29,990 nucleotides of DNA, taken from NCBI GenBank assembly GCA_037137395.1, contig JBAXKK010000024.1:1-29990 (forward strand), written 5' to 3'. Positions 545-26,803 of the stretch are shown one piece after another. This stretch comes from Elusimicrobiota bacterium (GTDB lineage Bacteria; Elusimicrobiota; Elusimicrobia; Elusimicrobiales; UBA9959). Each line of letters begins with the position of its first letter. The stretch's first letter is position 1. Below the pieces are notes generated by a model. It was not told where the DNA came from and searched no databases. It worked only from the letters and a program-made list of their open reading frames with translations. Both the position numbers and the translations under genes were made by a program.

Positions 545-574
545 TTGACTTTTTAAAAAAATATTTGCTAGGAT
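545..574 (+). promoter_or_regulatory. sigma70-type promoter, predicted TSS ~581
   Basis: TTGACT (545-550), 18-nt spacer, extended -10 TG-c-TAGGAT (566-574); the first aptamer starts right after the predicted TSS. Confidence 0.65.
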
Positions 575-581
575 TTAGTTA

Positions 582-648
582 CAGGCGAGACTTTACAGAC
601 TTAACTTGGCCCGGCCTGGGCGAAAGCCAAACTGCGACCTAAAGGAGT
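582..648 (+). promoter_or_regulatory. SAM-II/SAM-V-type riboswitch aptamer A
   Basis: P1 CAGGC(582-586)/GCCTG(614-618); UUU 592-594; UUGG(606-609) pairs CC-U-AA(638-642) with bulged U; ACUU(599-602)/GAGU(645-648); GGC-GAAA-GCC hairpin (619-628) in loop 3. Confidence 0.6.
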
Positions 649-700
649 TTTTTTATTGGTCTATAAAACATAATCTGAAGTTGCCACGCAGCAGGTGGCA

Positions 701-741
701 AGGTATTTAATATCCAACTTGTCACCTAAGACTAAAGCGGA
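701..741 (+). promoter_or_regulatory. SAM-II-type riboswitch aptamer B
   Basis: P1 AGGU(701-704, alternatively 693-696)/ACCU(724-727); UUU 706-708; UCC(713-715)-AAC-UUGUC(719-723) pairs GAC-U-AA(730-735)-AGC-GGA(739-741). Confidence 0.7.
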
Positions 742-763
742 ACAGCTGAAAATAATTGCTGAG

Positions 764-803
764 ACCCGCTTTCAACTACAAGTTGCCGGCGGGTTTTCCT
801 TTT
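764..803 (+). terminator. Intrinsic terminator (expression platform of aptamer B)
   Basis: ACCCGC(764-769)/GCGGGT(789-794) with inner CAAC/GTTG, then TTTTCCTTTT. Antiterminator helices CAACTTGT(715-722)/ACAAGTTG(778-785) and AAAGCGG(734-740)/CCGCTTT(766-772). Confidence 0.65.
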
Positions 804-837
804 CCGCCCCTATCACGGTAAATATAGAGGTATATAT

Positions 838-2169
838 ATGAAACGATCCAAAAGACGGTTTCGGCCATTCTGGCCGGTAAATGTTGAAGACGCGCCGGCA
901 TCTTCCGGCATAGAGCAGTTTGTTTCCTTAAGAGAGTTAAACCGATGGGCGTTTGACTTCCTTAAAACATATCTTTACGCGCTTCATTCCGGTACCCTGG
1001 CTAATATCGAGGTCAAAGTTAAATCCTTTCACGCCATGACGTCAATTAACCATCCCGTAATCTCAAAGCCGAGGATATCTTTTCAGGTTGAAAGCGGACT
1101 GGTCCAAATAGAGGATAGCTATGTTTACGCGCAGGTTAACTACGGCGGAGCCGATTATTCAGTTAATCTGTTAAGAATGAACCAGGATATGCAGGGTATT
1201 GTTTATGAGATTGTGGTTGCCGGGACCTCCGCCGAGGCTAAAAGGCCTGATACGCTCCGTGACCTTTTAATTAATACGGCAATAAGCAATTCCATGTACC
1301 GGGGTAAAATACTCCGCGTCCTGGAGGCTCCAGATGCGCATGATGACGAAGACCCCGGATGCCTGAATGTGGAAATCGTTAAAAATATTGAAGGCGCGAC
1401 TTTAAGCGATGTGTATTTGCCGGAGAACGTGTCTAAGGAACTGCGCAAGTTTATAGAGTGCGCCGGCAGATATGACGAATTAAAGCTCTCTCTCAGATAT
1501 TTGCTGTCAGGGCCTCCGGGCACGGGCAAAACCCAGATCGTCCGGGCCATAGCAAAAGCCTGCGAAGGGAAAGCTACAATCATTCTCGCCAGCGGAGGTG
1601 ACGCCCGGCTTAATATGCTCTTCTCCTTCGCTAATATTTTCAGCCCGGCCATACTCTGCATTGATGATATAGATCTGGTGGTAGGTGAAAGGGAGCGGAT
1701 GTATAATAAAAATGTCCTTGGAACCTTCCTGCAGAAGCTGGACGGCTTCGTTCAGAATAATGTGTTTGTGCTGGCCACCACTAATGACAAAGGTATGGTA
1801 GATATGGCCGCCAGCCGGCCCGGGCGGTTTGACCACATAATTGATGTCGGCGCCCTTGAGCCGCACAACTACCTTGACCTGGTGAAGCGGTGCACGAAGG
1901 ACCGGGAGATTGTGACTCTGTTTGAGGACGGAGATGTGCTGGCGCTTCTTAAGCATAAGGAGATAGTGGGCGCGTTTCTCGCTAATCTGGTTAAACAGAC
2001 GGTTATAAGTAAGATGACCAACGGCAAGGAAGGTATAGGTAAAACGGAGCTGCTGGCGATAATAAACCGCACCTACCGCGGCTTCTATCAAAATCCGTCA
2101 AAGGCGGGCGTCGGCTTCGCGCAAGCGCCGTTCGGCGGAGCGTCCATAATATCCTGCGAGAGCGAATAA
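838..2169 (+). CDS. AAA+ ATPase (single classic AAA domain, unrecognised N-terminal ~180 aa)
   Basis: Walker A GPPGTGKT, Walker B ILCIDDID, sensor-1 ATTN, SRH RPGRFD; SD GAGGT upstream. Confidence 0.85.
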   Translation: MKRSKRRFRPFWPVNVEDAPASSGIEQFVSLRELNRWAFDFLKTYLYALHSGTLANIEVKVKSFHAMTSINHPVISKPRISFQVESGLVQIEDSYVYAQVNYGGADYSVNLLRMNQDMQGIVYEIVVAGTSAEAKRPDTLRDLLINTAISNSMYRGKILRVLEAPDAHDDEDPGCLNVEIVKNIEGATLSDVYLPENVSKELRKFIECAGRYDELKLSLRYLLSGPPGTGKTQIVRAIAKACEGKATIILASGGDARLNMLFSFANIFSPAILCIDDIDLVVGERERMYNKNVLGTFLQKLDGFVQNNVFVLATTNDKGMVDMAASRPGRFDHIIDVGALEPHNYLDLVKRCTKDREIVTLFEDGDVLALLKHKEIVGAFLANLVKQTVISKMTNGKEGIGKTELLAIINRTYRGFYQNPSKAGVGFAQAPFGGASIISCESE

Positions 2170-2251: not shown

Positions 2252-2304
2252 GGGCTATATTTATTCCAACTTGTTTGCCCGATCGGTCTGATAAACTAAA
2301 TAGG
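2252..2304 (+). promoter_or_regulatory. SAM-II-type riboswitch aptamer C (metK leader)
   Basis: P1 GGGC(2252-2255)/GCCC(2277-2280); UUU 2260-2262; CC(2266-2267)-AAC-UUGUUU(2271-2276) pairs AAAC-U-AA(2293-2299)-AUA-GG(2303-2304); directly upstream of SAM synthetase. Confidence 0.8.
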
Positions 2305-2330
2305 CGCGCCGGTTTTTTACGGCGCATCAG

Positions 2331-2368
2331 ACCGCTACCAAAATACAAGTTGGCAGCGGTTTATTTTT
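2331..2368 (+). terminator. Intrinsic terminator (expression platform of aptamer C)
   Basis: ACCGCTACCAA(2331-2341)/TTGGCAGCGGT(2350-2360), one mismatch, then TTATTTTT. Antiterminator CCAACTTGT(2266-2274)/ACAAGTTGG(2345-2353) and CGGTCTGAT(2284-2292)/ATCAGACCG(2326-2334). Confidence 0.75.
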
Positions 2369-2397: not shown

Positions 2398-3558
2398 ATG
2401 CTGAAAGGAAATTACATGTTCACCTCGGAGTCGGTAACGGAAGGCCACCCGGATAAGGTCTGCGACCAGATCTCGGACGCGGTGTTGGATGAGATACTTA
2501 AAGAGGATCCGCTGGGCCGCGTGGCCTGCGAAACCATGGTTACAAACGGCCTGGTGGTAATAGGCGGCGAAATAACCACCAAAACCTATGTTGATGTCGA
2601 GAGCGTGGCCCGCAAGGTTATAAGCGATATAGGCTACAACTCGTCGGTCTATGGGTTTGACGCCAAGTCCTGCGCGGTAATAAGCGCCATACACAAGCAA
2701 TCGAAAAATATAGCGCGGGGCGTTAACACCGGCGGGGCGGGAGATCAGGGGATGATGTTCGGTTACGCCTGCGATGAAACGCCGGAGCTTATGCCGCTAC
2801 CCATATACCTGGCGCACAAACTGGCGCAGCGCCTTTCCGAAGTCCGCAAGACGGATGTGTTGGATTACCTTGGCCCGGACGGCAAATCACAGGTTTCGGT
2901 GGAATACAGGGACAGCCGCCCGGTAGGCGTTACGGACATCGTGCTTTCCACGCAGCACACTGAGAAAATACTGGATAAGACCGGTGAGAAGATAACACGG
3001 GAGTCCAAAGATGAACTGATCGAGACTGTTATAAAGCCGGTGCTGGGCGACTGGATAAAGGGCGGGGTGAAGTTCCACATAAACCCGACTGGAACGTTTC
3101 TCATAGGCGGGCCGCAGGCTGATACCGGGCTTACAGGCAGGAAGATAGTGGTGGACACCTATGGCGGCATGGCGCCGCACGGCGGCGGGGCTTTCTCAGG
3201 CAAGGACCCCACAAAGGTGGACCGTTCGGCGGCGTATATGGCCCGCTACATCGCAAAGAATATCGTGGCCGCTGGCTTGGCGCGCAACTGTCTGGTGCAG
3301 ATCGCTTATGCCATAGGTATCGCGGAGCCGGTGTCCTTCCTGGTGAATACTTACGGCACCGGCAGGGCGGCTGACGAGCGGCTTACTGAGATAGCCCGCG
3401 CGCTGTTCCCGCTTAAGCCCGTTGATATCATAAGCGCTCTGAACCTGCGCAAGCCGGTGTACCTGCGGACCGCCGCCTACGGACACTTCGGCCGCGACGG
3501 CTTCGCCTGGGAAAACACCGATAAGGCGGAAGCCCTGAAAAAGGAGGCGCTTAACTAG
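2398..3558 (+). CDS. metK: S-adenosylmethionine synthetase
   Basis: [36 protein letters not shown] signatures; SD AAGGAG. Confidence 0.98.
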
Positions 3559-3863
3559 CCGTCGTTTGAAATACAAATAACGATCATAGAGAGTAGGGTT
3601 AGCTTGAAAGTTGCAACTGCAACTTTCCGTCCGCATAGCGGGCGCCCATTCGGGAGGCATACACCTCTTTGGGCCGGGCGCGCATAGCGCTGGGCCCTCA
3701 GCCCGCTATGCGGGGAATCCTGCAGAATAACTCTGTTCCCTGATTTCCTAAGTGAAATCTATCGTGAACTGCAGGATTCAGGTTGGGGAACGGCCCGTCT
3801 GAAACCCTTGCCAACCTGCCGCCGCACGGCGGTAAGGTGGAACAGCCGACCTTAGGAGGAACT

Positions 3864-5375
3864 ATGAAAAAAATATTATCTTCACAGAATACCGCGGAAC
3901 TGACTGCAAATAAAAAAACAATTATTGGTGAGCCGACAGCTCCGCCAAAGCTCTCCCGGCTGGCCGGGCTCGGTGTTTACGGCTTTGACCGCTCCGAGCC
4001 GGTGATATTGGCGGCGCTGATCACTGAAGATCCGCTGCTGTTGATAGGCCCGTCGGGAACAGGCAAGACCTATCTGCTGAACACGCTATCGGAGGCGCTG
4101 GGCCTTAATCACCGCCATTACAACGCGAGCCTCATTTCTTTTGACGACCTTGTCGGATTTCCGTACCCGGATAAAGACAATGCCGGCGTCAAATTCCTGG
4201 AAACGCCGGCCACCGTGTGGGGCGCCCAGTCCGTACTGATCGACGAGATCAGCCGCTGCAAGCCCGAGCATCAGAATCGGCTCTTCTCGCTGATCCATGA
4301 GCGGCGGATTCAGGGAATCCCTTTGACAAAACTGCGCTTCCGCTGGGCGGCCATGAACCCCTGCTCGTCAGATCAGGGAAGCATTGAGGATTATGCAGGT
4401 TCTGAGGCGCTGGACCCGGCACTCGCCGACCGGTTTTCTCTTTTTGTGCAGGCGGCGGATTGGAATGAGCTTACTAAGGAAGAGCGCCTGCTCATCGCGG
4501 CGCCTGCCGGTGAGGGCCGGGTGGCCAATGATGGCGGCCGCCTCCGCGATGAGGTGGCGCTCTGGCGCAAAGAGTTTTTGTCGCGGTTGGAAAGTTGCCC
4601 GCCGATAATTTCAACCTATGTCGAAGCCGCCATCACGGCGCTAAGCGCTGGTGGCGCGCGGCTTTCCCCGCGCCGCTCAACCCTGATGACAAGAAGTTTA
4701 TTCGCTGCGACCATCGCGGTGTGCAATCAATCAGAGTCCATCTTCCGCAGTATCCTGCAAGCCAGCTTACCGCACCAGTGCTGGGGCGTTGCGATAAAGC
4801 GCGAAACAGTGGCGGCGGCGCACAGGGTAGCCTGGGCCAGCGCCCAGCCGGACTCTCCCGGTATCTGGCTGCATTCTTTTATGGCCGAGAAAAATCTGGC
4901 GCGCAAGCTGGCTATACTTGTGGAAAAGTGCGATTCCCCGGATAGCGGCACCCAGGCTGTGGCCGAGCTGCTGGCCTCGGAGGCGCCGGAACGCGCAGCC
5001 GCCTTTGCTTTTGTCACCTATCCCGCCGCTGTCGCGGGAAAGCTGCCTATCGGCGCCGAGGGGGTAAACGACCTCGGCAAGGCGGCTGCGCCATTTCTTA
5101 CCGCTAAAGGAGATATTGTCTGGCAGGAGCGAAAATCAACTATGACTCTGAAACAGGCGTTTGTGGCGGCGGCGACGCAGGGAAAACAAACGAAGCACCC
5201 TGACTTCGTCCGCTACGCGGCAGTCCTAAATAATTTGGAGGGCGGGCGCGCGGAACGCGCCAAGCAGTTTTTTAACGGCTGCCTGGCGCAAAAATACACG
5301 GTGGCCGATCCGGAAGGATTGGAAATTGAGATAAACCAATGTGTGGAAATCCTGACGCAGCGAGGTCTGATATGA
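3864..5375 (+). CDS. MoxR-like AAA+ ATPase with C-terminal extension
   Basis: GPSGTGKT, LIDEISR, WAAMNP, LDPALADRF; start moved to ATG 3864 because of AGGAGG at 3854-3859. Confidence 0.85.
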   Translation: MKKILSSQNTAELTANKKTIIGEPTAPPKLSRLAGLGVYGFDRSEPVILAALITEDPLLLIGPSGTGKTYLLNTLSEALGLNHRHYNASLISFDDLVGFPYPDKDNAGVKFLETPATVWGAQSVLIDEISRCKPEHQNRLFSLIHERRIQGIPLTKLRFRWAAMNPCSSDQGSIEDYAGSEALDPALADRFSLFVQAADWNELTKEERLLIAAPAGEGRVANDGGRLRDEVALWRKEFLSRLESCPPIISTYVEAAITALSAGGARLSPRRSTLMTRSLFAATIAVCNQSESIFRSILQASLPHQCWGVAIKRETVAAAHRVAWASAQPDSPGIWLHSFMAEKNLARKLAILVEKCDSPDSGTQAVAELLASEAPERAAAFAFVTYPAAVAGKLPIGAEGVNDLGKAAAPFLTAKGDIVWQERKSTMTLKQAFVAAATQGKQTKHPDFVRYAAVLNNLEGGRAERAKQFFNGCLAQKYTVADPEGLEIEINQCVEILTQRGLI

Positions 5376-5821
5376 GCGCGTATTGGGATGTCCTTCAGAA
5401 TGTGGGCGGTCAGGGGCGTAAGTGGCGTAAGCAAAAGATTCACTCGTCCATTCTGGGTAAAAGCGACGGTGTCCCGCGCTGTCGGCTTGTTACCCGCCTG
5501 TGTCTTGGTTTTGCCGCCGGTGAAGATCCGGTCACCGTTATTAACGGGATTCTGGCGGGAAAGGGATACAGCAGCCCGGAACAACTGCGCGGCGCGTTCA
5601 GCCTGCCGGCAGGGCGGCTTATATGCAGACCGGCTGGAAAAATCATACGCGGCGTCTACCTCAGGGTAAAGACCGCCGATCGGGATAAAGTTCTTGAGCA
5701 GGCCCTGCTGCTGGGGCTTTGCACAAGCCAGATCTTTGACCCCGCGCGCCCAGTGCTCTGGACAACCGTCAGCCTTACGCGCGCCCTTGAACTTTTTGAC
5801 CCGGCGGGGTTCTACTTATGA
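5372..5821 (+). CDS. Hypothetical protein (149 aa)
   Basis: ATGA overlaps with both neighbours (5372-5375 and 5818-5821), exactly filling the gap; no recognised motif. Confidence 0.7.
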   Translation: MSAYWDVLQNVGGQGRKWRKQKIHSSILGKSDGVPRCRLVTRLCLGFAAGEDPVTVINGILAGKGYSSPEQLRGAFSLPAGRLICRPAGKIIRGVYLRVKTADRDKVLEQALLLGLCTSQIFDPARPVLWTTVSLTRALELFDPAGFYL

Positions 5822-7212
5822 ACGATATAAATGAAAAACGCTTCCGTGAGATCGTCATAGAGCTGATTGACGAGAATCCCTTCGCTATAAGGGCGGTACT
5901 AAAGATCCTGGATATCGTCGTCACTGCCGGCATTCCTACGCTTGCCGTTACTTGTGAGAGCCATCCGCGGCTTTTAGTCAGCCTGGAATTCCTGAAAAAG
6001 TATTGTCGGGACGACCAGCAGGTTAAGGCCGTCATCTGCCATGAATTCCTGCATGTGCTTCTTCGCCACACGGAAACCAGGGGCGCCTTTAGCGCGGCGA
6101 AGCATATGGCGTTTGACGCCGTAATCAACGCTATTATTCACCGCCAGTACGGCGCCGCTTATTCTTCTATGATGTCGAACTATTACGCGGAAGCGCAGGA
6201 TCTTACAAAGCTGCTGCGCCCAATGAACGCGCAAGAGCGCGCCTCGTACGCGAGACAGCAATCTGACCAGCGTTTTGGTCTGCCGCAATGGGTGCATACG
6301 TGGGACGCGCTCTATAAGGGCCGCCTTGTCGTCGATGATATTGAGGCGCTTATTGTGGATATGAAAAATATCGGCGGTGCCGATGGGCTAGAGGACGACG
6401 CCGGGTCCGGCTTATTCAAACTTAAGACCGGGCTGCCAGAGGGGCTTGATAATCTGCTCGGCGATCATGAAAATATTGGGAAACCGCTGCCGGAGGGATT
6501 GCGCGACGCGCTTGAAGAGGCGCTCAGGCAAATGGATGGTTCGGGAATCTGGCATAGCCCCAAAAGCCGCGGTGTCGGGGCTAACCCCTATGAGACGCTG
6601 CTCACCGCGCACAACGACCCAATGCGCAACTGGGAGAGGAAGACGCTTGAGATCCTTAAGCGGCACCTATCGCCGGATAGGCATTCGCGCGCCAGGCGCC
6701 TTGAGGAAGCGGCGGCCCATATCCCCGTGCTTTCGCCCAAAGACCGCAGGGCATTTATGCGCGCTCTGTGGGCGCCGTTTCTGCCTGATGCCGAATGGAA
6801 CACGCAGCAGCCAAAGCGTGAAGGCACGGCTCAGGTGTATCTGGATGTTTCAGGTTCTATGTGCGCTGAAATGCCGACATTGATCGCGCTTCTTGGCAGG
6901 CTGTTATGCTACATTCGCCGCCCGTTCTGGGCCTTCAGTGACGGGGTCGCCCCGGCTGTGATAGAGCAGGGGCAGCTTAAAGCGCGAAGCACGGGCGGAA
7001 CGAACATGACTTGCGTTCTGGAACACATCGCGAAGACCAGACCCGCGGCCGCCGTGATAGTGAGCGATGGTCATATTGAAACCCTTGACCCCCGGCTGGT
7101 CGCCAGGATCGCAGGCACGCGGCTGCATGTCCTGGTCACTCGCGGCGGCAGTACAGAAGAGTTGCGGCGCGCCGGGCTGTCTTATACCCGGTTGAGGAGG
7201 ATATCTGCATGA
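5818..7212 (+). CDS. Putative metallopeptidase-vWA protein (DUF2201-like)
   Basis: N-terminal HEXXH (CHEFLHVLLRH); C-terminal MIDAS DVSGS, STGGT, IVSDG. Confidence 0.8.
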   Translation: MNDINEKRFREIVIELIDENPFAIRAVLKILDIVVTAGIPTLAVTCESHPRLLVSLEFLKKYCRDDQQVKAVICHEFLHVLLRHTETRGAFSAAKHMAFDAVINAIIHRQYGAAYSSMMSNYYAEAQDLTKLLRPMNAQERASYARQQSDQRFGLPQWVHTWDALYKGRLVVDDIEALIVDMKNIGGADGLEDDAGSGLFKLKTGLPEGLDNLLGDHENIGKPLPEGLRDALEEALRQMDGSGIWHSPKSRGVGANPYETLLTAHNDPMRNWERKTLEILKRHLSPDRHSRARRLEEAAAHIPVLSPKDRRAFMRALWAPFLPDAEWNTQQPKREGTAQVYLDVSGSMCAEMPTLIALLGRLLCYIRRPFWAFSDGVAPAVIEQGQLKARSTGGTNMTCVLEHIAKTRPAAAVIVSDGHIETLDPRLVARIAGTRLHVLVTRGGSTEELRRAGLSYTRLRRISA

Positions 7213-7295: not shown

Positions 7296-8402
7296 ATGGG
7301 AGGCTATATGAAAAACAAATACGGAATAAGCAGTGAGAATTACATGCTGATTGAAAAACTTATCAGTTTGATCTATCCGGAGAATGAAAAACCGGCGCGT
7401 AATATCTTCAACCGCCGGACACTGAAAAAGCAGCTTATCGGTTGTGATTTCCCCGCGGAAGTATGGCAGGAGGCGATAAGTATGGTTGGGGGCGCGATTC
7501 AGGTCGGTCTTGAACTGAGGTCCTTCCAGGGATGTTTTGAAGGTTTTTTTGTGGTGCCGCGTATTAACCGGCCCGAAAGCGCCGGGGCTATCAGGCGGAA
7601 CTTCAGAAAGAAGTTGCTCGCGTTTATCAAGTCGGAGAAAGCGGAGCAGAAAATCAGCAGAAAATTGGAAAGAGCTGAAGCTGAAAGCGCGGGCGCGCGG
7701 CCGGAGGCGGCTGTTGAAATAACAGGGAAGCTTATAAGGGACAACCCGGCCTACGACTTCCTGAAGGCGCATGGTCGTTCGCTGGCGGCCGCCCGGCCGG
7801 AAAACTTTGAGGATGCCGACAACTTCTTTATCGGCTGTCTGGCCGCGTTCGCTAAAACCAGAACTCATTCCAGCGGACGCTCTACCCCTTACTTCGCGGC
7901 TGGCGTTATGTTTGAGAATCTGTGCGATGAGTTTGTCAAAATAGCCGACGGATTCCTGAGGCGGAACCGGAAGGATTATTTCGCCGCCTTCGCGCGCGAT
8001 ACTTTTAAGGATCAGAATGCGTTAGGAGGAGGGGTTGAAGCGGGATATAGCTCCGGAGTGGCGGACGCCCTAAGGGAAAGCGCCGTACTGCGGCTTAAAA
8101 AACTCCCTAAACAACTTCATCGGATAACGCACCGCCTTTTATATTGTAAAGCCGGAGAAATCGGAACCCGTCCCATGCCGGAATGTGTTGCGCGCCTGAC
8201 GCCTGCCGGACTTATTTTTAAGACGGGACTGGACGCTGATTTCGAAAGCGTTTTTAACGCGATAGAGAAACTGGAGGGGGAGGATAAGCGGAAGGCTTTT
8301 GCGGCGTTGAGGCGTTTCCAAAATCTCATTAAATGGAAGTGCTATATGAATTGGTGGGTTAGCGTGAATTGGCCCGGCAGCGTTGCTGATGAACGCAGAT
8401 AA
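7296..8402 (+). CDS. Hypothetical protein (start 7296 or 7308)
   Basis: 368-codon ORF, GGAGG before both candidate starts; no recognised motif. Confidence 0.7.
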   Translation: MGGYMKNKYGISSENYMLIEKLISLIYPENEKPARNIFNRRTLKKQLIGCDFPAEVWQEAISMVGGAIQVGLELRSFQGCFEGFFVVPRINRPESAGAIRRNFRKKLLAFIKSEKAEQKISRKLERAEAESAGARPEAAVEITGKLIRDNPAYDFLKAHGRSLAAARPENFEDADNFFIGCLAAFAKTRTHSSGRSTPYFAAGVMFENLCDEFVKIADGFLRRNRKDYFAAFARDTFKDQNALGGGVEAGYSSGVADALRESAVLRLKKLPKQLHRITHRLLYCKAGEIGTRPMPECVARLTPAGLIFKTGLDADFESVFNAIEKLEGEDKRKAFAALRRFQNLIKWKCYMNWWVSVNWPGSVADERR

Positions 8403-8440: not shown

Positions 8441-9346
8441 ATGAAAAACACACACGAAGTAAACAGTAAAGATGTTAAATCGGTTGAACCCCTGACTGTC
8501 GCCGGGCGGCTTAAAGCCGGCGGGAAGGTCTTTTCGGTTGAGTTTTATCACCCGGATATACGGGAACGGAGGGAAGCGCTTTTTTGCAACGCTAAAAAAT
8601 TGAAAGCTTTCTCCCCGGATTTTGTTTTTACAACCGATATTGCAGGCGCGGAGTTCGGGAAAGCGGTTTCTATTATTAAAAGACTTAAAGTTGCCGCGGG
8701 CGGGGAGTTAGTGGCGTGCTTAACCTGCGCAAAACATAGCCGCGGTGAAATAGCCGGGATCTGCGTCCGGTTGAAGAGTATCGGCGTCAAAAATATCTTA
8801 GCGCTTAGGGGGGATATGAGTAAACTGAAAAGTCCAGTCCCCGGGCGCGACTGGCAGCACGCCTCCCGGCTTATTGAGGAAGTTAAAAAAACAGGCGGGT
8901 TCTGCCTGGGGGGAGCCTGTTATCCTGAAAAGCATCCCGAGGCGCCGACGCTGGAAAGTGATATTGACCATCTTAAGGAAAAAGTGGACGCCGGAGCCGA
9001 ATACCTGGTCACACAGTATTTTTTTGATAACTCCAGCTACTTCAGATTCCTTGAAAAGACAGCCGCCGCGGGCATAAATGTGCCCATACTGCCTGGTTTG
9101 TTGCCCATACATGTATATCTGGATGGGGCGGGGCGGAATATGGAAGTTGCTATACCGAAACCGCTACAGCGTGGTATTGAGCGTTGGAGCGGAAACAGGA
9201 ACGGGTTGTTAAATTTCAGCGCGAATTATGTCTTAACGCAGGCCGCCGATCTTTTGCGGGGCGGTGCCCCGGGGCTGCACATCTACACGCTTACTCACAG
9301 TTTCGCGGCGGAAGTTGTTTTGAAGAGCCTGAGGCGCGCGCAATAG
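8441..9346 (+). CDS. metF: Methylenetetrahydrofolate reductase (divergent)
   Basis: FSVEF, LTC, LALRGD, YPEKHPEA, KVDAGA, TQYFFD, GLHIYTL; SD AGGAGG. Confidence 0.88.
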   Translation: MKNTHEVNSKDVKSVEPLTVAGRLKAGGKVFSVEFYHPDIRERREALFCNAKKLKAFSPDFVFTTDIAGAEFGKAVSIIKRLKVAAGGELVACLTCAKHSRGEIAGICVRLKSIGVKNILALRGDMSKLKSPVPGRDWQHASRLIEEVKKTGGFCLGGACYPEKHPEAPTLESDIDHLKEKVDAGAEYLVTQYFFDNSSYFRFLEKTAAAGINVPILPGLLPIHVYLDGAGRNMEVAIPKPLQRGIERWSGNRNGLLNFSANYVLTQAADLLRGGAPGLHIYTLTHSFAAEVVLKSLRRAQ

Positions 9347-9564: not shown

Positions 9565-9636
9565 GGCGCGGTGGCCAAGTGGTAAGGCGGAAGTCTGCAA
9601 AACTTCTATTCGTGGGTTCGATTCCCACCCGCGCCT
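9565..9636 (+). tRNA. tRNA-Cys(GCA), CCA not encoded
   Basis: Acceptor GGCGCGG/CCGCGCC plus U discriminator; anticodon arm GAAGT-CTGCAAA-ACTTC (GCA 9597-9599); T arm GTGGG-TTCGATT-CCCAC. Confidence 0.96.
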
Positions 9637-9740
9637 TTTAAAATTTGAGGGAATCGAAGCCGACCCGAAGCGCGTCCGGTGGACGATGAAGAGAGGGCGG
9701 CCGGCTTCGAGGGAGAGACCGGGAGGGAGCGGAAGAGAAG

Positions 9741-9758
9741 GATTCCCACCCGCGCCTT
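9741..9758 (+). repeat. 18-bp duplicate of the tRNA-Cys 3' end
   Basis: GATTCCCACCCGCGCCTT identical to 9620-9637. Confidence 0.9.
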
Positions 9759-9813
9759 AAATATTTTTAGCGCAGTGGTAAACGAGTGGCTGGCGGAAAT
9801 TTCCGTGGCTATT

Positions 9814-18442: not shown

Positions 18443-18729
18443 TGGACTGCGCCTGGTCGGCAGCCGCCTGGGGCGCGGCCTTCGGGCTGTTGAACGGAGG
18501 GCTTTCCCGGGCAGCTCTTAAGAAAGCGGTGGATAAGGCGGATAAGGTCTTTTACGCGGCGTTCGTGGGCGGATTCTTGTGGCGGCTTTTTTTTCTCGTC
18601 GGTGCTGTGTGGCTTTTAAGGGATAAAAAGTATATAATTTTACTGACATTCTCCGGTGTTCTTATTTTAACGCAGTTCATTTTTGAAGCGGTCCCGTTGA
18701 AAAAAAATGGAACTAAAAGCGATACTTGA
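18439..18729 (+). CDS. ATP synthase protein I-like membrane protein
   Basis: Hydrophobic 96 aa overlapping both neighbours, just before atpB. Confidence 0.7.
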   Translation: MMDCAWSAAAWGAAFGLLNGGLSRAALKKAVDKADKVFYAAFVGGFLWRLFFLVGAVWLLRDKKYIILLTFSGVLILTQFIFEAVPLKKNGTKSDT

Positions 18730-19471
18730 ACATCATATCCTGGACCATATCTGGACCTTTTTCAGCCTGGGACCGCTGACGCTTCCTTTTTCTAAGCATG
18801 TGCTGATGATGTTTATTGTGGCCCTCGTTCTGCTGATCGGGCTGCCAGCCCTGATCTCAAGCAAAAGTCCGGCGCTCGCGCCCTTCAGAGCAATGATAGA
18901 GATAATAGTTCTTTTCCTGAGGGATGAGGTTGTCGGCCCTAATCTCGGGCATAAGACCGCCGCCTATCTGCCTTATTTTTCCACTCTGTTTTTTTTTATA
19001 CTCGCCATGAATCTTGCAGGGCTGGTGCCTTATGGGGCTACCGCTACGGGAAATCTGGCGGTTACGGGCGGCTTGGCGCTCACCACGTTTGTACTTCTTA
19101 ATCTGTCGGGCATGAGGGAGCAGGGCGTCGTGGGTTATTTCAGCCACCTTGTGCCTAAAGGCGTGCCGTTCTGGCTTTACCCCCTGCTTTTTCCGATGGA
19201 ACTTCTGGGGATGCTTACCAAGACTTTCGCGCTCTGCGTCAGGTTATTCGCCAATATGATAGGGGGCCATATAGTTGTTCTATCCCTCATAAGTCTCATC
19301 TTTATTTTCGGCGGGCTGAATACGGCGCTTGGTCTGGGAGTCACCGCGCCGATAGCGGTGCTTATGGTGCTGTTTGTCATGCTATTGGAACTGTTCGTCG
19401 CTTTTCTGCAGGCGTACATTTTCACTTTTTTGACGGCGATTTTCACCGGCGCCGCCATGCACCCGCATTAA
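18707..19471 (+). CDS. atpB: ATP synthase Fo subunit a
   Basis: ALCVRLFANMIGGH (essential Arg), LQAYIF. Confidence 0.96.
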   Translation: MELKAILEHHILDHIWTFFSLGPLTLPFSKHVLMMFIVALVLLIGLPALISSKSPALAPFRAMIEIIVLFLRDEVVGPNLGHKTAAYLPYFSTLFFFILAMNLAGLVPYGATATGNLAVTGGLALTTFVLLNLSGMREQGVVGYFSHLVPKGVPFWLYPLLFPMELLGMLTKTFALCVRLFANMIGGHIVVLSLISLIFIFGGLNTALGLGVTAPIAVLMVLFVMLLELFVAFLQAYIFTFLTAIFTGAAMHPH

Positions 19472-19580
19472 CAGCCGGCCTTTAAGAAGGCAGGCTGCGC
19501 CATACGCCCAGAGCTTATGGCATACGGCTTATGGCTTATGGCAGTAAAATCTAAGATGTTGATAATAACGGAGGAATAAT

Positions 19581-19889
19581 ATGAATGATATGATGTTTTT
19601 AGGACTCGGTTACATCGGCGCGGGCGTGGGCGCCGGCCTTACGCTTATAGGCGCCGGTCTCGGTATAGGTAAGATGGCCGCCAGCGCTGTTGAAGGCACG
19701 GCACGCCAGCCGGAAGCGGGCGGAGCAATAAGGACTACAATGATCATCGCGGCAGCGCTCATCGAAGGCCTCGCTTTCTTCGCACTGGTCATCTGTCTCC
19801 TGGCTTTAATGAACTTCGGCATGCCAAAACAAGAAGCGGCCGCCGGCGCGCCCGTAGTTGCGCCAGCCCAGATTCAAGCGCATAAATAA
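19581..19889 (+). CDS. atpE: ATP synthase Fo subunit c (likely H+-type)
   Basis: GAGLGIG, ARQPE, ALIEGLAFF; lacks the Q...E(S/T)xxY Na+ signature. Confidence 0.96.
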   Translation: MNDMMFLGLGYIGAGVGAGLTLIGAGLGIGKMAASAVEGTARQPEAGGAIRTTMIIAAALIEGLAFFALVICLLALMNFGMPKQEAAAGAPVVAPAQIQAHK

Positions 19890-19972
19890 TCAGCGGTTAG
19901 TGATCAGTAGCTAGTGGATTATTATTCACACGCTCACCGCTCACCACCATACACTACGCACCGGAGCTTACC

Positions 19973-20491
19973 ATGGAAGCATTGATAAGGCCTGAATTCG
20001 GCCTGATGTTCTGGACCATCTTCATCTTTATTCTATTGGTCCTTATCCTCTCAAAGACGGCCTGGAAGCCGCTTATGAAAGCCGTTGAAGAACGGGAACA
20101 CGGCATACGCCATGATCGGGAAGCCGCCGAGAAAGCCAGGCTTGAGGCCGAAAAAATAAAAGAAGGGCTGGAAGCCGGTATGGCTGCGCTTAAAATAGAG
20201 ATCGAGGCCCGACTGAACGAGGCCCGCGCGTCCGGCGTCCGGGAGCGGGACCTGATAATAGAGGACGCCCGGAAAAGCGCAGCCCTGCTTATTGAGACGG
20301 CCAAAACGGAGCTTGAATCCCAGAAAAACGCGATGGTGCGGGAGCTGAAAGACAAGGTTGCCGAGCTGGCGCTCCTCGCGGCGGAGAGGGTTCTTCAGAA
20401 AACCATAGATCAGAAGGCCGATAGAGAGCTGGTGAACCATTTTCTGAAGGAACTTGAAAGCGGTGATGCCAGGTATAAACTGGGGAAATAA
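19973..20491 (+). CDS. atpF: ATP synthase Fo subunit b
   Basis: N-terminal TM FWTIFIF..L..ILSKTAWKP, coiled coil, operon position. Confidence 0.93.
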   Translation: MEALIRPEFGLMFWTIFIFILLVLILSKTAWKPLMKAVEEREHGIRHDREAAEKARLEAEKIKEGLEAGMAALKIEIEARLNEARASGVRERDLIIEDARKSAALLIETAKTELESQKNAMVRELKDKVAELALLAAERVLQKTIDQKADRELVNHFLKELESGDARYKLGK

Positions 20492-20494
20492 AAA

Positions 20495-21052
20495 ATGAAA
20501 GCCGCGGATAAAACACTATCAAAGCGGTATGCCAGGGCCTATATGGGTTTGGACGGCGCCGCTTTTGACAAGCATGGGGAAGCCTCGGCCGCGCTCAGGA
20601 TAGCGGAGCTGGAAAAAGTTCGGAGCGCCGCCGGCCAATTCGTGCGCCTGTTCCTGCACCCCCTGGTAGGCTATGACGATAAAAATGAAATTCTGACCAG
20701 GCTGCTTTCCAAGGATGTGATAACCTCGCGGGCCGCGGCGCTGGTGGGTCTGCTGATCAGAGAGAACAGATTTTATCTGCTGGATGCTGTTCTGGAGGAC
20801 TGCGTTAAGTTTTATAACGATTATGCCGGCATCGCGCTGGCCGAAGTCGCCTCCCGTCATCCGCTGAGCGAAGAAGAGCTGCGTCATATCGCGAGGATAC
20901 TGTCCTCCGCTTCCGGCAAAAAAGCCCGGGTCACCCAGGTGGCTTCTGAGAGCGTTATAGGCGGGATGGAGATACGGATGGGGGACCTGCTGATAGACGC
21001 CACGGTGAAGGGAAGGCTTAAAAAACTGAAGAACAGCATTTTAAAATATTGA
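20495..21052 (+). CDS. atpH: ATP synthase F1 delta
   Basis: KRYARAY, VIGGMEIRMGDLLIDATVKGRL. Confidence 0.92.
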   Translation: MKAADKTLSKRYARAYMGLDGAAFDKHGEASAALRIAELEKVRSAAGQFVRLFLHPLVGYDDKNEILTRLLSKDVITSRAAALVGLLIRENRFYLLDAVLEDCVKFYNDYAGIALAEVASRHPLSEEELRHIARILSSASGKKARVTQVASESVIGGMEIRMGDLLIDATVKGRLKKLKNSILKY

Positions 21053-21167
21053 TGGCCAGCGGCACCAGAATTAAGACGTAAAAGGTGAAGAGTTAAAGAA
21101 TTAAAAAATCAGCGTTTAATGCTTGCCGCATAAAATTTAGCCGCATACGTTTTTTTGAGAGGAAACC

Positions 21168-22682
21168 ATGATAAGACCAGAAGAGATCACTCAGATAATT
21201 AAGAGCAGGATAGAAAAATTCGTGCCGGAAGCCGAGCTTTCCGAGACCGGTCAAGTGCTGCAGATCGGCGACGGGATCGCACGCGTTTATGGCCTGAATA
21301 ACGCCGTAATCGGAGAGCTGGTGGAATTTGAGGGTGGCGTTTCCGGCATGGTGCTCAATATCGAGCGCGAGAATGTCGGCGTGGTGATCATGGGCGGCGA
21401 TTCTCTGATACGGGAAGGCGACCGCGTTAAGCGGACCAACCGCGTGGTGGATATACCCGTGGGGCCGGAGCTCATAGGCAGAGTTGTGGATCCTCTCGGA
21501 AATCCTATAGACGGCAAAGGGCCGTTGAACGCAAAGAAGAGGCGCCCGGTGGAGGTAATCGCTCCCGGCGTGCTGGAGCGCGCTCCGGTCAGGGAAGCGC
21601 TGCAGACCGGCATAAAGGCCGTGGACGGCATGATCCCCATAGGCCGCGGTCAGCGCGAACTTATAATCGGCGACAGGCAGACCGGCAAGACGGCCATAGC
21701 TATAGACACCATAATAAACCAGAAAAAAGAGCCGGCTGACAGGCGCCCCATCTGCATTTATGTTGCTATCGGGCAGAAAGAATCCACGGTTGCCCGGGTG
21801 GCCAAAACTCTGGAAGAGCACGGCGCCATGGAGTATTCCATAATAGTTTCAGCCACCGCCTCCCAGCCGGCTTCGCTCCTTTATCTCGCGCCGTATTCAG
21901 GCTGCGCCATAGCCGAGGGCTTTCTCTGGGAAGGAAAGCACGCCCTTATAATCTACGACGACCTTTCAAAACACGCCCAGTCTTACCGCCAAATGTCGCT
22001 GCTGCTGCGCCGCCCGCCCGGCCGCGAGGCCTACCCCGGCGACGTGTTCTATCTGCATTCAAGACTGCTTGAACGCGCCTGCAAACTTTCCGATAAGAAC
22101 GGCGGCGGTTCCATAACCGCCCTGCCGATAATCGAAACGCAGGCCAATGATGTCACAGCTTACATCCCCACCAATGTTATTTCTATTACCGACGGGCAGA
22201 TCTACCTTGAGCCGTCTCTTTTCCATTCCGGCATCAGGCCGGCGGTGAATGTCGGCATCTCGGTATCGCGCGTGGGAAGTTCGGCTCAGATCAGGGCTAT
22301 GCGGCAGGTGGCCGGCAGGCTCCGGTCGGACCTGGCGCAGTACAACGAACTAGCTGCTTTCGCGCAGTTCGGTTCCGACCTGGACAAGTCCAGCATGGAC
22401 CAGCTCAAGCGCGGCGAACGACTGGTGGAGCTGCTGAAGCAGGAGCAGTTCAAGCCTATGCCAGTGGAAGAGCAGGTGCTTGCGTTCTTCGCCGGCACCC
22501 GCGGGCATCTTGATGATATTGAGCTGCCCAAGATTAAAAAATTCGAAGCCGACCTCTTAAGGTTTGTGAAAGATAGGTACGCGAACCTTCTGGCCGACAT
22601 CGCTGCTAAAAAACAGCTGGACGCCGAGCTTGAGTGCAGGATTGTGGACGCGATAGCTGAGTTTAAGAAGAGTTTTGTGTAA
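21168..22682 (+). CDS. atpA: ATP synthase F1 alpha
   Basis: [37 protein letters not shown]. Confidence 0.98.
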
Positions 22683-22793
22683 AAATATTTAGGGTTTAAA
22701 ATCATCGGAAGCAGGATTTAAGATTAAAATTCGCGGGTTAACGATTGCCGGCAGTTTCCAATCCTGATTTTAAACCCGGAATCTTGAATTAAA

Positions 22794-23726
22794 ATGGAGA
22801 ATAAAATGAGATATCTGGTCACAGGCGGCGCCGGATTTATAGGTTCCAACCTGGCTTTCACGCTCACCGGAGAGCGAAAAGCCGACGTGGTAATCCTTGA
22901 TAATTTCTCGTCTGGAAATTTTAAAAATCTTATCGGTTTCAAGGGCGACGTTATAGGCGATGACATCCTAAGCCGCGAATGGTGGGATAAGACGGGGAAA
23001 GTGGACGCCGTTTTTCACGAGGCCGCCATAACCGATACCACCGTGCACGACCAGAAGCGCATGATGGAGGTGAACGTTGAAGGATTCAGGAATATACTGC
23101 GCTTTGCCCTTGAAAAAGGCGTAAAAAGAGTCGTGTACGCCTCTTCCGCCGGCGTTTACGGAAACGGCGCGTGTCCCATGACGGAGGAGCAGCCGCTGAC
23201 GCCTGAGAACGTGTATGGGTTTTCAAAAGCAATGATGGACAACGTGGCGCGGGAATTCGCGGCCGCGCACGCGGATATTACGCTGGTCGGTCTGCGCTAT
23301 TTTAACGTGTACGGCCCCCGCGAATACTACAAAGGCCACGCCGCCAGCATGATGTATCAGCTTTACCTGCAGATGAAGGCCGGCCAGCGGCCTAGAATAT
23401 TCAAGTTCGGTGAGCAGATGCGTGATTTTGTATATGTAAAAGACATCATTCTGGCCAACCTTAAAGCTCTTGAGGTTAAAAAATCCGGCGTAGTGAACGC
23501 CGCCACCGGCGCGCCGGAGAATTTCAACAAGGTTATAGAGTGCCTTAATAAGGCCATGGGCTCTAGCATAGCCCCGGAATATTTTGACAACCCTTACGGG
23601 TTTTTTCAGGTTAAGACCCATGCTGACCTAGGGCGCGCGGGGGCTTACCTGAACTACCGGCCGGAATGGAGTCTTGAAGCCGGTATAGCCGATTACGTGC
23701 AGGAATTGAAGAAAGCTGGTATATAG
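22794..23726 (+). CDS. hldD: ADP-L-glycero-D-manno-heptose 6-epimerase (extended SDR)
   Basis: TGGAGFIGS, FHEAAITDTT, YASSAGVYG, YGFSK, GLRYFNVYGPREYYKG..ASM. Confidence 0.85.
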   Translation: MENKMRYLVTGGAGFIGSNLAFTLTGERKADVVILDNFSSGNFKNLIGFKGDVIGDDILSREWWDKTGKVDAVFHEAAITDTTVHDQKRMMEVNVEGFRNILRFALEKGVKRVVYASSAGVYGNGACPMTEEQPLTPENVYGFSKAMMDNVAREFAAAHADITLVGLRYFNVYGPREYYKGHAASMMYQLYLQMKAGQRPRIFKFGEQMRDFVYVKDIILANLKALEVKKSGVVNAATGAPENFNKVIECLNKAMGSSIAPEYFDNPYGFFQVKTHADLGRAGAYLNYRPEWSLEAGIADYVQELKKAGI

Positions 23727-23834
23727 AGTGTGAGTTTGAGAGTTCTTAAAATTGAAGAGTCGGGTAAAGTTGCGGGGCTTGAAACTCCGGAAGCCACATG
23801 ATTTTATAAACACGGTAACTCGCTGACTGAATTT

Positions 23835-24737
23835 ATGGCATCTTTAAGAGACATACGAAAACGCATCAAATCCGTTAAAAGCATAAAGCAGATAACTTAT
23901 GCCATGAAGATGGTTTCCGCGGCGCGCATCAAGCGCGCTCAGAGCGCTATTTTGTCTTCCCGTCCCTTCGCGCTGAAGATGGAGGGCCTGATAGCCGACC
24001 TCTATACCGAGATGGAGAGTTCGCAGTTCAGAGATTCCCCCGCGTACAATCTGTTCGCGGAAACCCCCGGAGCGGACGTCGTCGGGCTGGTGCTGATCGC
24101 CGGAGATAAAGGGCTGTGCGGCTCATTCAATTCCAATCTCCTTAAAGCCGCGACGGCCTGGCTGACAGAAAATCGCGACAAAAGAATGCGTGTCATCTGC
24201 GTGGGGCGCAAAAGCCGGGATTTTATAAAAAGACTTAAAGGTCTAAACCTTGAAATAAGCTATGAGATGGTGGGGCTGTTCCCCAAGGCGGGGTATGTCC
24301 ACGCCGATATACTGGCAATAAACGTTTTAAAAATGTTCTCCGGCGGAGATGTCCGGTCTATTACTCTCATATATAATGAGTTTAAATCCATGTTGACGCA
24401 ACGCGTGGTCCGCGAAGAGCTGCTGCCGCTTAAGAGCCACATACTTGAAACCCCGGATCCCGCAGGGAGGAAACTCCGGGATTTCAGCTTTGAGCCGAAA
24501 AAACACGTGCTGCTTGAGGCGCTGCTTCCCAGATATATCGGAGCCCAGCTCTACAGGGTGCTGCTTGAATCGCAGGCGGCTGAACTGGCGGCGAGAATGA
24601 ACGCCATGGAAGCGGCTTCAAAGAACGCTTCCGACCTGATAGATGGGCTCACGCTGAAGCTTAACAAGATGCGTCAGGCGATGATAACCACCGAGCTTAA
24701 CGAGATCGTGAGCGGCGCGGAAGCACTGGGCGGGTAA
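23835..24737 (+). CDS. atpG: ATP synthase F1 gamma
   Basis: IKSVKSIKQITYAMKMV, DKGLCG, RQAMITTELNEIVSGA. Confidence 0.97.
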   Translation: MASLRDIRKRIKSVKSIKQITYAMKMVSAARIKRAQSAILSSRPFALKMEGLIADLYTEMESSQFRDSPAYNLFAETPGADVVGLVLIAGDKGLCGSFNSNLLKAATAWLTENRDKRMRVICVGRKSRDFIKRLKGLNLEISYEMVGLFPKAGYVHADILAINVLKMFSGGDVRSITLIYNEFKSMLTQRVVREELLPLKSHILETPDPAGRKLRDFSFEPKKHVLLEALLPRYIGAQLYRVLLESQAAELAARMNAMEAASKNASDLIDGLTLKLNKMRQAMITTELNEIVSGAEALGG

Positions 24738-24853
24738 TTGACCAGAGGTAAGGATGCACAGCAAGTTGGCAATTTAGACGCAAAGCCATTCTGCAGTTCA
24801 GAGGCGCAGCGATTCAGCGATTTAGAGGCGCGTCCGAATTGCTTTACATCTAA

Positions 24854-26323
<1,470 letters not shown>

Positions 26324-26383
26324 AGTCCCGGCATTTACTAAATTGCTGTGCCTCTAGATTGCCATGCGGCTACAGGTATGTTT

Positions 26384-26803
26384 ATGAAAAATAAACTTTT
26401 GCTCACCATTTTGACTCCTGAAAAAGCGGTACTGACCGACAAGCCGGTGGATTTTGTGGCTATACCGGCTTTCGGCGGCGAGATGGGTGTACTGCCGGGG
26501 CACGCTTCTTTCGTGGTGCAGTTGAGGGAAGGCGTTCTGAAATATAAGGACGAGCATAAAAGAGAGATGTTCGCGGTACTGAATGGTTTTGCTGAAGTCC
26601 ATGCGGACAAGGTTTTGATCCTGGCCGAGGCCGCCGAGTTCGCCAGGGAAGTGGATGAGGAACGCGCCCGGCAGGCCTATCAGAAAGCGAAGGATAGTCT
26701 GGCTATGCGCGGAAAAGACTTGGATCTTGACGCCGCGCAAGCCGCTTTACGGCGCGCCATACTTCGTGTCAAGATAGCGGAGTTCAGGAAAAAATACAAA
26801 TAA
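26384..26803 (+). CDS. atpC: ATP synthase F1 epsilon (start 26378 or 26384)
   Basis: ILTPE, GEMGVLPGH, GFAEV, ILAEAAE. Confidence 0.93.
   Translation: MKNKLLLTILTPEKAVLTDKPVDFVAIPAFGGEMGVLPGHASFVVQLREGVLKYKDEHKREMFAVLNGFAEVHADKVLILAEAAEFAREVDEERARQAYQKAKDSLAMRGKDLDLDAAQAALRRAILRVKIAEFRKKYK

Follow-up and report, generated by a model that had tools for sequence, protein, structure and literature searches.

Predicted tandem SAM-II/SAM-V-type riboswitches at the head of an accessory metK-MoxR-vWA island in Elusimicrobiota

The closest described relatives of the RNA elements reported here are the riboswitches SAM-II (PDB 2QWY) and SAM-V (PDB 6FZ0; PMC6061858). In the published descriptions, the SAM-V binding site consists of third-strand U8-U10, U19-U20-G21, an unpaired U47, A48-A50 and A18 (PMC6061858). 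SAM-V acts on translation, and terminators are already known for SAM-II (PMC9373788). Tandem arrangements are reported as well, with 44 cases of tandem SAM-II and 149 of SAM-II/SAM-V (PMC9481103), and in the SAM-II/V tandem upstream of Pelagibacter bhmT a poly(U) run lies in the linker (PMC11508383).

The window analysed is a whole contig of 29,990 bases from a genome of 2.7 Mb, and those relatives of its proteins that carry names indicate Elusimicrobiota. Its forward strand carries three putative aptamers of this kind, two in tandem (A and B) upstream of a gene for an AAA+ ATPase and one (C) upstream of metK (Table 1). The promoter, aptamers and terminator that the original prediction had placed in front of the ATPase gene were all recovered at the positions given in the table; the third aptamer and its terminator (2252-2368) had gone unmentioned.

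Table 1. Features of the leader and of the genes that follow it (positions in the window)
Feature	Position	Strand	Details
Sigma-70-type promoter	545-574	+	-35 at 545, -10 at 569; likely start near 581
Aptamer A	582-643	+	SAM-II/V-type H-pseudoknot
Aptamer A, parts		+	P1 582-586/614-618; UUU 592-594; UUG 606-608; L3 hairpin 619-628; CUAAA 639-643
P2a-extension 3′ strand of A, then U7	644-654	+	U7 at 648-654; candidate pseudoknot-formed terminator
Linker hairpin	681-701	+	stem conserved, loop variable
Aptamer B	701-741	+	core 701-736, P2a to 741
Aptamer B, parts		+	P1 701-704/724-727; UUU 706-708; UUG 719-721; CUAAA 732-736; L3 of 2 nt
Antiterminator helix of B	734-740/766-772	+	predicted in folding snapshots
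Intrinsic terminator of switch B	764-803	+	stem 764-794; imperfect, interrupted U-run 795-803
AAA+ ATPase, classic clade, Bcs1/YjoB-like	838-2169	+	443 aa; PF00004 at residues 221-338
ATPase motifs (residues)		+	N-domain ~24-183; Walker A 225-232; Walker B hhhhDD (D276, D277); sensor-1 N316; SRH R327/R330
Aptamer C	2252-2300	+	third copy, 5′ of metK
Switch C	2284-2368	+	antiterminator 2284-2292/2326-2334; terminator 2331-2360 and U-run
Accessory metK	2398-3558	+	second copy in the genome
MoxR-type AAA ATPase	3783-5375	+	true start probably somewhat 3′ of 3783
Small conserved module ORF	5339-5821	+	no family match
Metallopeptidase-like/vWA-like protein	5818-7212	+	DUF2201_N and DUF2201, both below cut-off
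orf368	7296-8402	+	368 aa; no family match
metF (MTHFR), second copy	8441-9346	+	other copy on contig C1, 43% identical

The promoter-like site scores 9 of 12 and has an extended -10; taken alone, such a score is no better than expected by chance (2 found, 3.0 expected). Three related leaders, among them those of locus L067 and genome G339, nevertheless share the same -35 hexamer and keep a -10-like one, although their upstream flanks diverge. Aptamer A and the terminator differ very little among three leaders, and the B terminator stem is identical in L067 and G339. This terminator, which ends about 220 nt from the likely start, was missed by a simple terminator scan. No hairpin terminator was found 3′ of aptamer A. 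A U-run lies directly 3′ of it in the window, L067, G339 and G402, and likewise behind the first aptamer in G143 and G019. An alternative P1 for aptamer B (693-697/723-727) was dropped because the nearer register has a compensatory change in G339.

A descriptor of the SAM-II/V pseudoknot, based on consensus words, afterwards loosened and tuned on these sequences, matched A, the core of B, C and one site inside the ATPase gene; 23 matches were found genome-wide. Among 2000 base-shuffles of 545-840, none gave two matches and four gave one, a test that is lenient because the descriptor had been tuned on the leader sequences themselves.

Judged by its sequence, the element shares with SAM-II and SAM-V, as these are described, the H-type pseudoknot, the UUU third strand, the descending UUG and ascending C-U-AAA, a short P1, an optional L3 hairpin, the P2a extension and a gene context of methionine, SAM and sulphur metabolism. 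The pseudoknot with P1 and P2 was parsed in 37 copies. Except for A18, all of the SAM-V binding-site nucleotides are present in A, B and C, these words having also served as selection criteria for the parse, and every nucleotide that directly contacts SAM in SAM-V is kept. Unlike in SAM-V, the position of A18, which pairs with A50 there, is a C in 36 of the 37 copies, A, B and C included. The variant also differs from both classes in being unscored by the Rfam models: no SAM family was found in the window at the gathering score, in the region 400-2500 at E ≤ 10, or in 20 homologous loci at E ≤ 2. A, B and C are, on these features, a new SAM-II/V variant of Elusimicrobiota that presumably binds SAM. 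It mostly precedes terminators, as SAM-II does. Compared with the described tandems, which likewise place two SAM pseudoknots in one leader and from which a steeper dose response is expected (PMC9481103, PMC11508383), the arrangement differs in that both leader switches seem to be transcriptional, that no separate hairpin precedes the U-run of A, and that a third switch follows one gene further on. Among titles and abstracts, no published description of SAM riboswitches or of a SAM-II variant in Elusimicrobia or Elusimicrobiota was found, and the supplements of surveys could list copies; nor was a SAM riboswitch upstream of an AAA ATPase found in a literature in which subscription journals were thinly covered.

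A search with the single sequence of the locus found no relative, but an alignment-based search did. Three covariance models (R1, R2 and R3) were built and run over 80 genomes of the family (R1, R2), 151 of the phylum (R2, R3) and 151 of the class (R3). Weak matches without the core were dropped by eye (6 of 9 inspected, with 24 new matches listed, then 2 of 7 and 5 of 27), and one metH leader with a degenerate third strand was retained by eye. When tandems were merged, 27 leaders remained outside the metK island. Eleven of them precede genes for methionine, cysteine or sulphur metabolism (metH 2, metY 4, cysT 3, sbp 1, cysK 1), and the four island leaders are followed by metK. The other 16 precede genes without a clear tie to methionine or sulphur, namely porin O/P (4), a PRK08912 aminotransferase (3), a TPR protein (3) and unknown genes (4), or no gene that could be found (2). 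Two of the metY, one of the TPR and two of the aminotransferase labels were assigned by likeness to scanned copies.

Covariation was clearest among six B-type copies, in which four of eight P2 pairs change on both sides, all 48 cells pair, and none of 500 shuffles reached the score. Five A-type copies were too alike to test, and A-type covariation alone was not above shuffles. Of the 37 parsed aptamers, 36 have pairing bases at the first variable P2b pair (CG 21, GC 10, UA 4, GU 1) and all have them at a P2a pair (CG 31, UA 6), P1 varies in sequence, and the third-strand base tends to track the pair beneath it (G/C-G 15, A/G-C 10, A/C-G 6, U/U-A 3); these counts overstate the case, because the set was chosen for its core words and its members are related. 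The SAM-type assignment made in the original prediction is supported by the binding-site words other than A18, by the covariation and by the methionine and sulphur genes downstream. Viral contigs had at least 117 stretches with a loose form of the pattern; 80 were rescored with R3, and all fell short of E ≤ 0.05.

Several of the outlying leaders have features of their own. L206 (G143) and L208 (G019), from a distant family, carry tandem aptamers of which the first ends in a U-run and the second overlaps the ribosome-binding site, resembling a SAM-II/SAM-V two-level pair; the genes that follow are unrelated hypotheticals. In family f4 (L209, L228/L239 and L232), a second conserved, GC-rich and structured-looking element lies just 5′ of the aptamer, and it had no Rfam match in L209 or L228. 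Three genomes of one family (L233, L234 and L235) have an aptamer and a terminator-like hairpin upstream of a TPR protein gene. The porin O/P genes under the riboswitch (L224, L228, L232 and L241), some with tandem copies, are candidate sulphate uptake porins.

Predicted folding is most consistent with a transcriptional OFF switch. For B, the helix 734-740/766-772 has a pair probability of 0.90-0.95 in transcripts ending at 772-792, and from a transcript end of 794 the terminator takes over by a small margin; blocking the aptamer raises the terminator probability there (end ~794) from 0.83 to 0.97. At equilibrium the terminator reaches 0.83-0.99 at full length without ligand, the antiterminated state lying 1.6 kcal/mol higher. 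Since the terminator would win even without ligand, B could switch only kinetically. The behaviour of C is more clear-cut, with a predicted terminator probability of 0.36 when the aptamer is free and 0.99 when it is blocked. These calculations favour the OFF-at-high-SAM logic originally proposed. That proposal had placed two antiterminator 5′ strands inside aptamer B; both exist, and only 734-740 is populated in the folding snapshots, not 715-722. The second helix (715-722/778-785) is complementary but unpopulated, both helices together costing about 8 kcal/mol over the first alone. L068 has a different, 11-nt complement to the 3′ strand of its own aptamer, and over 32 aptamers the excess of antiterminator complements overlapping the aptamer is modest (mean 7.3 versus 6.0 nt).

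Transcription would start near 581. Once SAM had bound, aptamer A would probably use its pseudoknot as a terminator stem and halt RNA polymerase at U7, so that it may be a complete switch in itself; in the model of B, its pseudoknot would sequester 734-740 and the terminator would form. At low SAM the antiterminator would form during transcription and the ATPase gene would be read, with switch C as a third decision before metK. No promoter-like match was found between the ATPase gene and aptamer C, so transcripts that reach metK probably pass all three switches. The ATPase gene would accordingly lie within the controlled transcript, as had been proposed.

The island behind the leader is accessory. 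The other metK copy, on contig C1, is 66% identical to the island copy, and the printed region upstream of it has no match to the core. In G339 and G060 a divergent MetK-like gene occupies the position of orf368. Its product (about 360 aa, 31-33% identical to MetK) terminates the MoxR-vWA module in both genomes, and the gene was found in 2 of 401 phylum genomes (L173, 14956-16044; L174, 7008-8084). To the left of the promoter, the window begins with a divergent ORF cut by the contig end (1-436, reverse strand), which has no Pfam or NCBIfam match and which we take to resemble a transposase N-terminus. Two imperfect 22-nt direct repeats (~478-534) lie between this ORF and the promoter and are possibly an IS end. 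To the right, a tRNA with anticodon GCA (9565-9636) is the sole Rfam match in the window, and a 17-nt copy of its 3′ end about 105 bases on (~9740-9760) may be what is left of an attachment site at the island's right border. Further on (18707-26803) are what we take to be genes of an F-type ATP synthase, in which the alpha and gamma genes are separated by a presumed NAD-dependent epimerase-like ORF (22794-23726).

If the leader had been made for the ATPase, then it might be expected to accompany the gene in other genomes. Full-length homologue ORFs numbered 132, of which 118 had at least 300 bases of upstream sequence. The leader precedes two of these 118, L066 (100% identical to the window protein) and L067 (95%), and covariance models run over the homologue loci (R3, 141/141; R2, 77/141) found no further copy before an ATPase gene. 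Of 401 genomes of the phylum, 3 have the ATPase itself; five genomes of the same genus were searched and gave no match. One genome of that genus, G339, carries the promoter-A-B-terminator unit directly on metK (98% identical) without the ATPase gene, in an island with the order XRE-metK-MoxR-ORF-vWA-MetK-like-integrase. In G402, from another genus, the tandem leader lies on a gene for an unrelated 244-aa protein; this gene was considered as the small ORF of the module and found to be unrelated to it. The ATPase of L068 is 78% identical, and the order there is ATPase-aptamer-metK-MoxR-vWA, with no leader before the ATPase gene and one aptamer before metK. G060 has the order metK-ATPase-MoxR-ORF-vWA-MetK-like and no leader. 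The link between ATPase and leader therefore appears to be local, and the survey of homologues goes largely against the original idea that the leader exists for the ATPase.

The metK sequences bear on the history of the locus. Those of G339 and of L067, which has the ATPase, have 18 derived sites in common, whereas the other pairings have 4 and 1. Unless recombination has intervened, this is most simply explained by G339 having lost the ATPase gene and C; a MetK tree left the island sequences unresolved. Across the ATPase family, WYL regulators are the most frequent neighbours (63 of 141 loci, which are partly redundant), and PD-(D/E)XK proteins also occur. Adjoining metK genes, which the original prediction had suggested looking for, were found in seven of the 141 loci and were lacking in the other 134. 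The seven belong to three lineages (the window clade with L068, G060 and an Ignavibacteriales contig), and on a tree of 49 of the 116 distinct sequences the adjacency forces at least three label changes. So much adjacency is more than would be expected of a pure passenger. The sequences of three close homologues (L072, L073 and L075) end a few hundred bases past the gene, and metK may lie beyond.

The ATPase has the marks of the classic clade of AAA+ proteins, K231, N316, R327 and R330 being invariant in 95 of 95 sequences. Walker B ends in DD in the same 95 and has no glutamate, and pore loop 1 is missing, with a gap of eight residues relative to p97 and no conserved aromatic at 250-258. The protein thus lacks both the aromatic pore loop 1 and the Walker B glutamate of threading unfoldases of the p97/FtsH type, and the absence of the pore-loop-1 segment tells against the SAM-specific remodeller originally envisaged. 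The structure model (pLDDT 86.9) gave YjoB (Z 18.2, 347 aligned, rmsd 8.1) and Bcs1 as its best whole-length matches. With the N-domain alone, Foldseek listed Bcs1 chains first (E 3.5e-3), and a wide search placed Bcs1 at rank 5 (Z 6.9, rmsd 3.3, 96 aligned) among unrelated folds that scored alike; YjoB was not among the matches listed for this domain. The N-domain, at first unrecognised, may be Bcs1/YjoB-like, though the match of the domain alone to Bcs1 is weak. Bcs1 works without threading. Both Bacillus subtilis YjoB (PDB 7W42/7W46) and mitochondrial Bcs1 likewise have an alpha/beta N-domain followed by a single AAA domain of the classic clade; the window protein differs from them in sequence (~17% identity), in having no transmembrane helix in its model, and, compared with YjoB, in Walker B (DD instead of E280/D281). 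YjoB is described as a hexameric, client-selective chaperone with an N-domain like that of Bcs1 (PMC9565160). The ATPase is most likely a ring chaperone that would hold folded or stressed clients without threading them; its features suit a chaperone of the holding or concerted-ring kind better than a remodeller that threads. Viral relatives (n = 22) are distant (26-34% identity), and none covers the first 117 residues. In a protein atlas the nearest clusters are generic AAA proteins, many of them from phages, and matches to the N-domain were all under 0.9. A predicted complex of MetK and the ATPase scored 0.06 (mark 0.32) and was used neither for nor against an interaction.

Taken together, the best explanation, to which we give a probability of about 0.62, is that the tandem SAM-II/V leader belongs to an accessory, mobile metK-MoxR-vWA island that would be induced by SAM starvation, its constant part being metK, MoxR, the small ORF and the vWA/peptidase gene, with the ATPase as a dispensable, recently enclosed first gene. 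In this lineage the ATPase is probably SAM-repressed, because it lies inside the transcript of the metK island. It is unlikely, if still worth considering, that the ATPase is instead a true member of a SAM module, serving the island MetK, or the MetK-like protein, as a client-specific chaperone that is needed at low SAM. The client selectivity of YjoB (PMC9565160) and the adjoining metK in three lineages would fit such a role, as would the position of G060, which branches deepest in the 12-row clade to which the window protein belongs, but 8 of those 12 rows, like most loci of the family, have no adjoining metK, G339 keeps the island without the ATPase, and pore loop 1 is missing. Doubt of another kind concerns whether the leader still works as described. 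That it no longer switches here, being mostly off or leaky, or that the variant senses a relative of SAM such as SAH, strikes us as very improbable: the 2-nt L3 and interrupted U-run are weak points of B in the window, its terminator is favoured without ligand and the A18 position is almost always C, yet the SAM-contacting nucleotides are all kept, A and the terminator hardly change across three leaders, and the downstream genes with clear annotation serve methionine, cysteine and SAM supply.

A response to phages would explain the same island differently. T3 SAMase is reported to deplete SAM and to inactivate MetK (PMC8406200, bioRxiv 2023.02.27.530186). A phage SAM lyase would then open the switches, and a spare MetK with chaperones would restore SAM for restriction systems; in another form of the idea, the variable first gene would be a stress effector. 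Even with both forms counted, we regard this as improbable. It draws on those papers and on gene context: a DNA methylase and ResIII upstream in L067, Fic in L068, an integrase downstream in G339, WYL and PD-(D/E)XK neighbours across the ATPase family, and the tandem leader in front of unrelated unknown genes in G402, G143 and G019. However, PADLOC had no match for metK, the small ORF, the vWA gene, orf368 or metF and matched both ATPases only as generic AAA proteins, the NCBIfam model IteA, for the anti-phage ATPase of IetAS, scored 55 bits against a cut-off of 510, and ordinary starvation for methionine or sulphur accounts equally well for the switches. In the improbable event that this reading is right, the locus would be an RNA-triggered counter to phage SAM lyases, made of three serial riboswitches, a spare SAM synthetase, dedicated chaperones and a portable leader that senses SAM depletion. 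The ATPase and the MoxR-vWA proteins would maintain MetK activity or release MetK from an inhibitor made by the phage. The leader, for its part, would travel in front of varied cargo genes.

The reading we prefer is that of a SAM-starvation-induced accessory island. The claim first put forward, of a riboswitch made for an ATPase, turns out to be weaker than it seemed. What comes to light is an accessory metK-MoxR-vWA island with two or three predicted SAM switches, and a SAM-II/V variant that occurs in several families of a single phylum and to which current Rfam models give no score. Its 37 natural copies provide a consensus and a testable change, C for A, beside the amino-acid pocket. A TPR protein, a porin and several hypothetical proteins are genes that can now be tested for a link to SAM.
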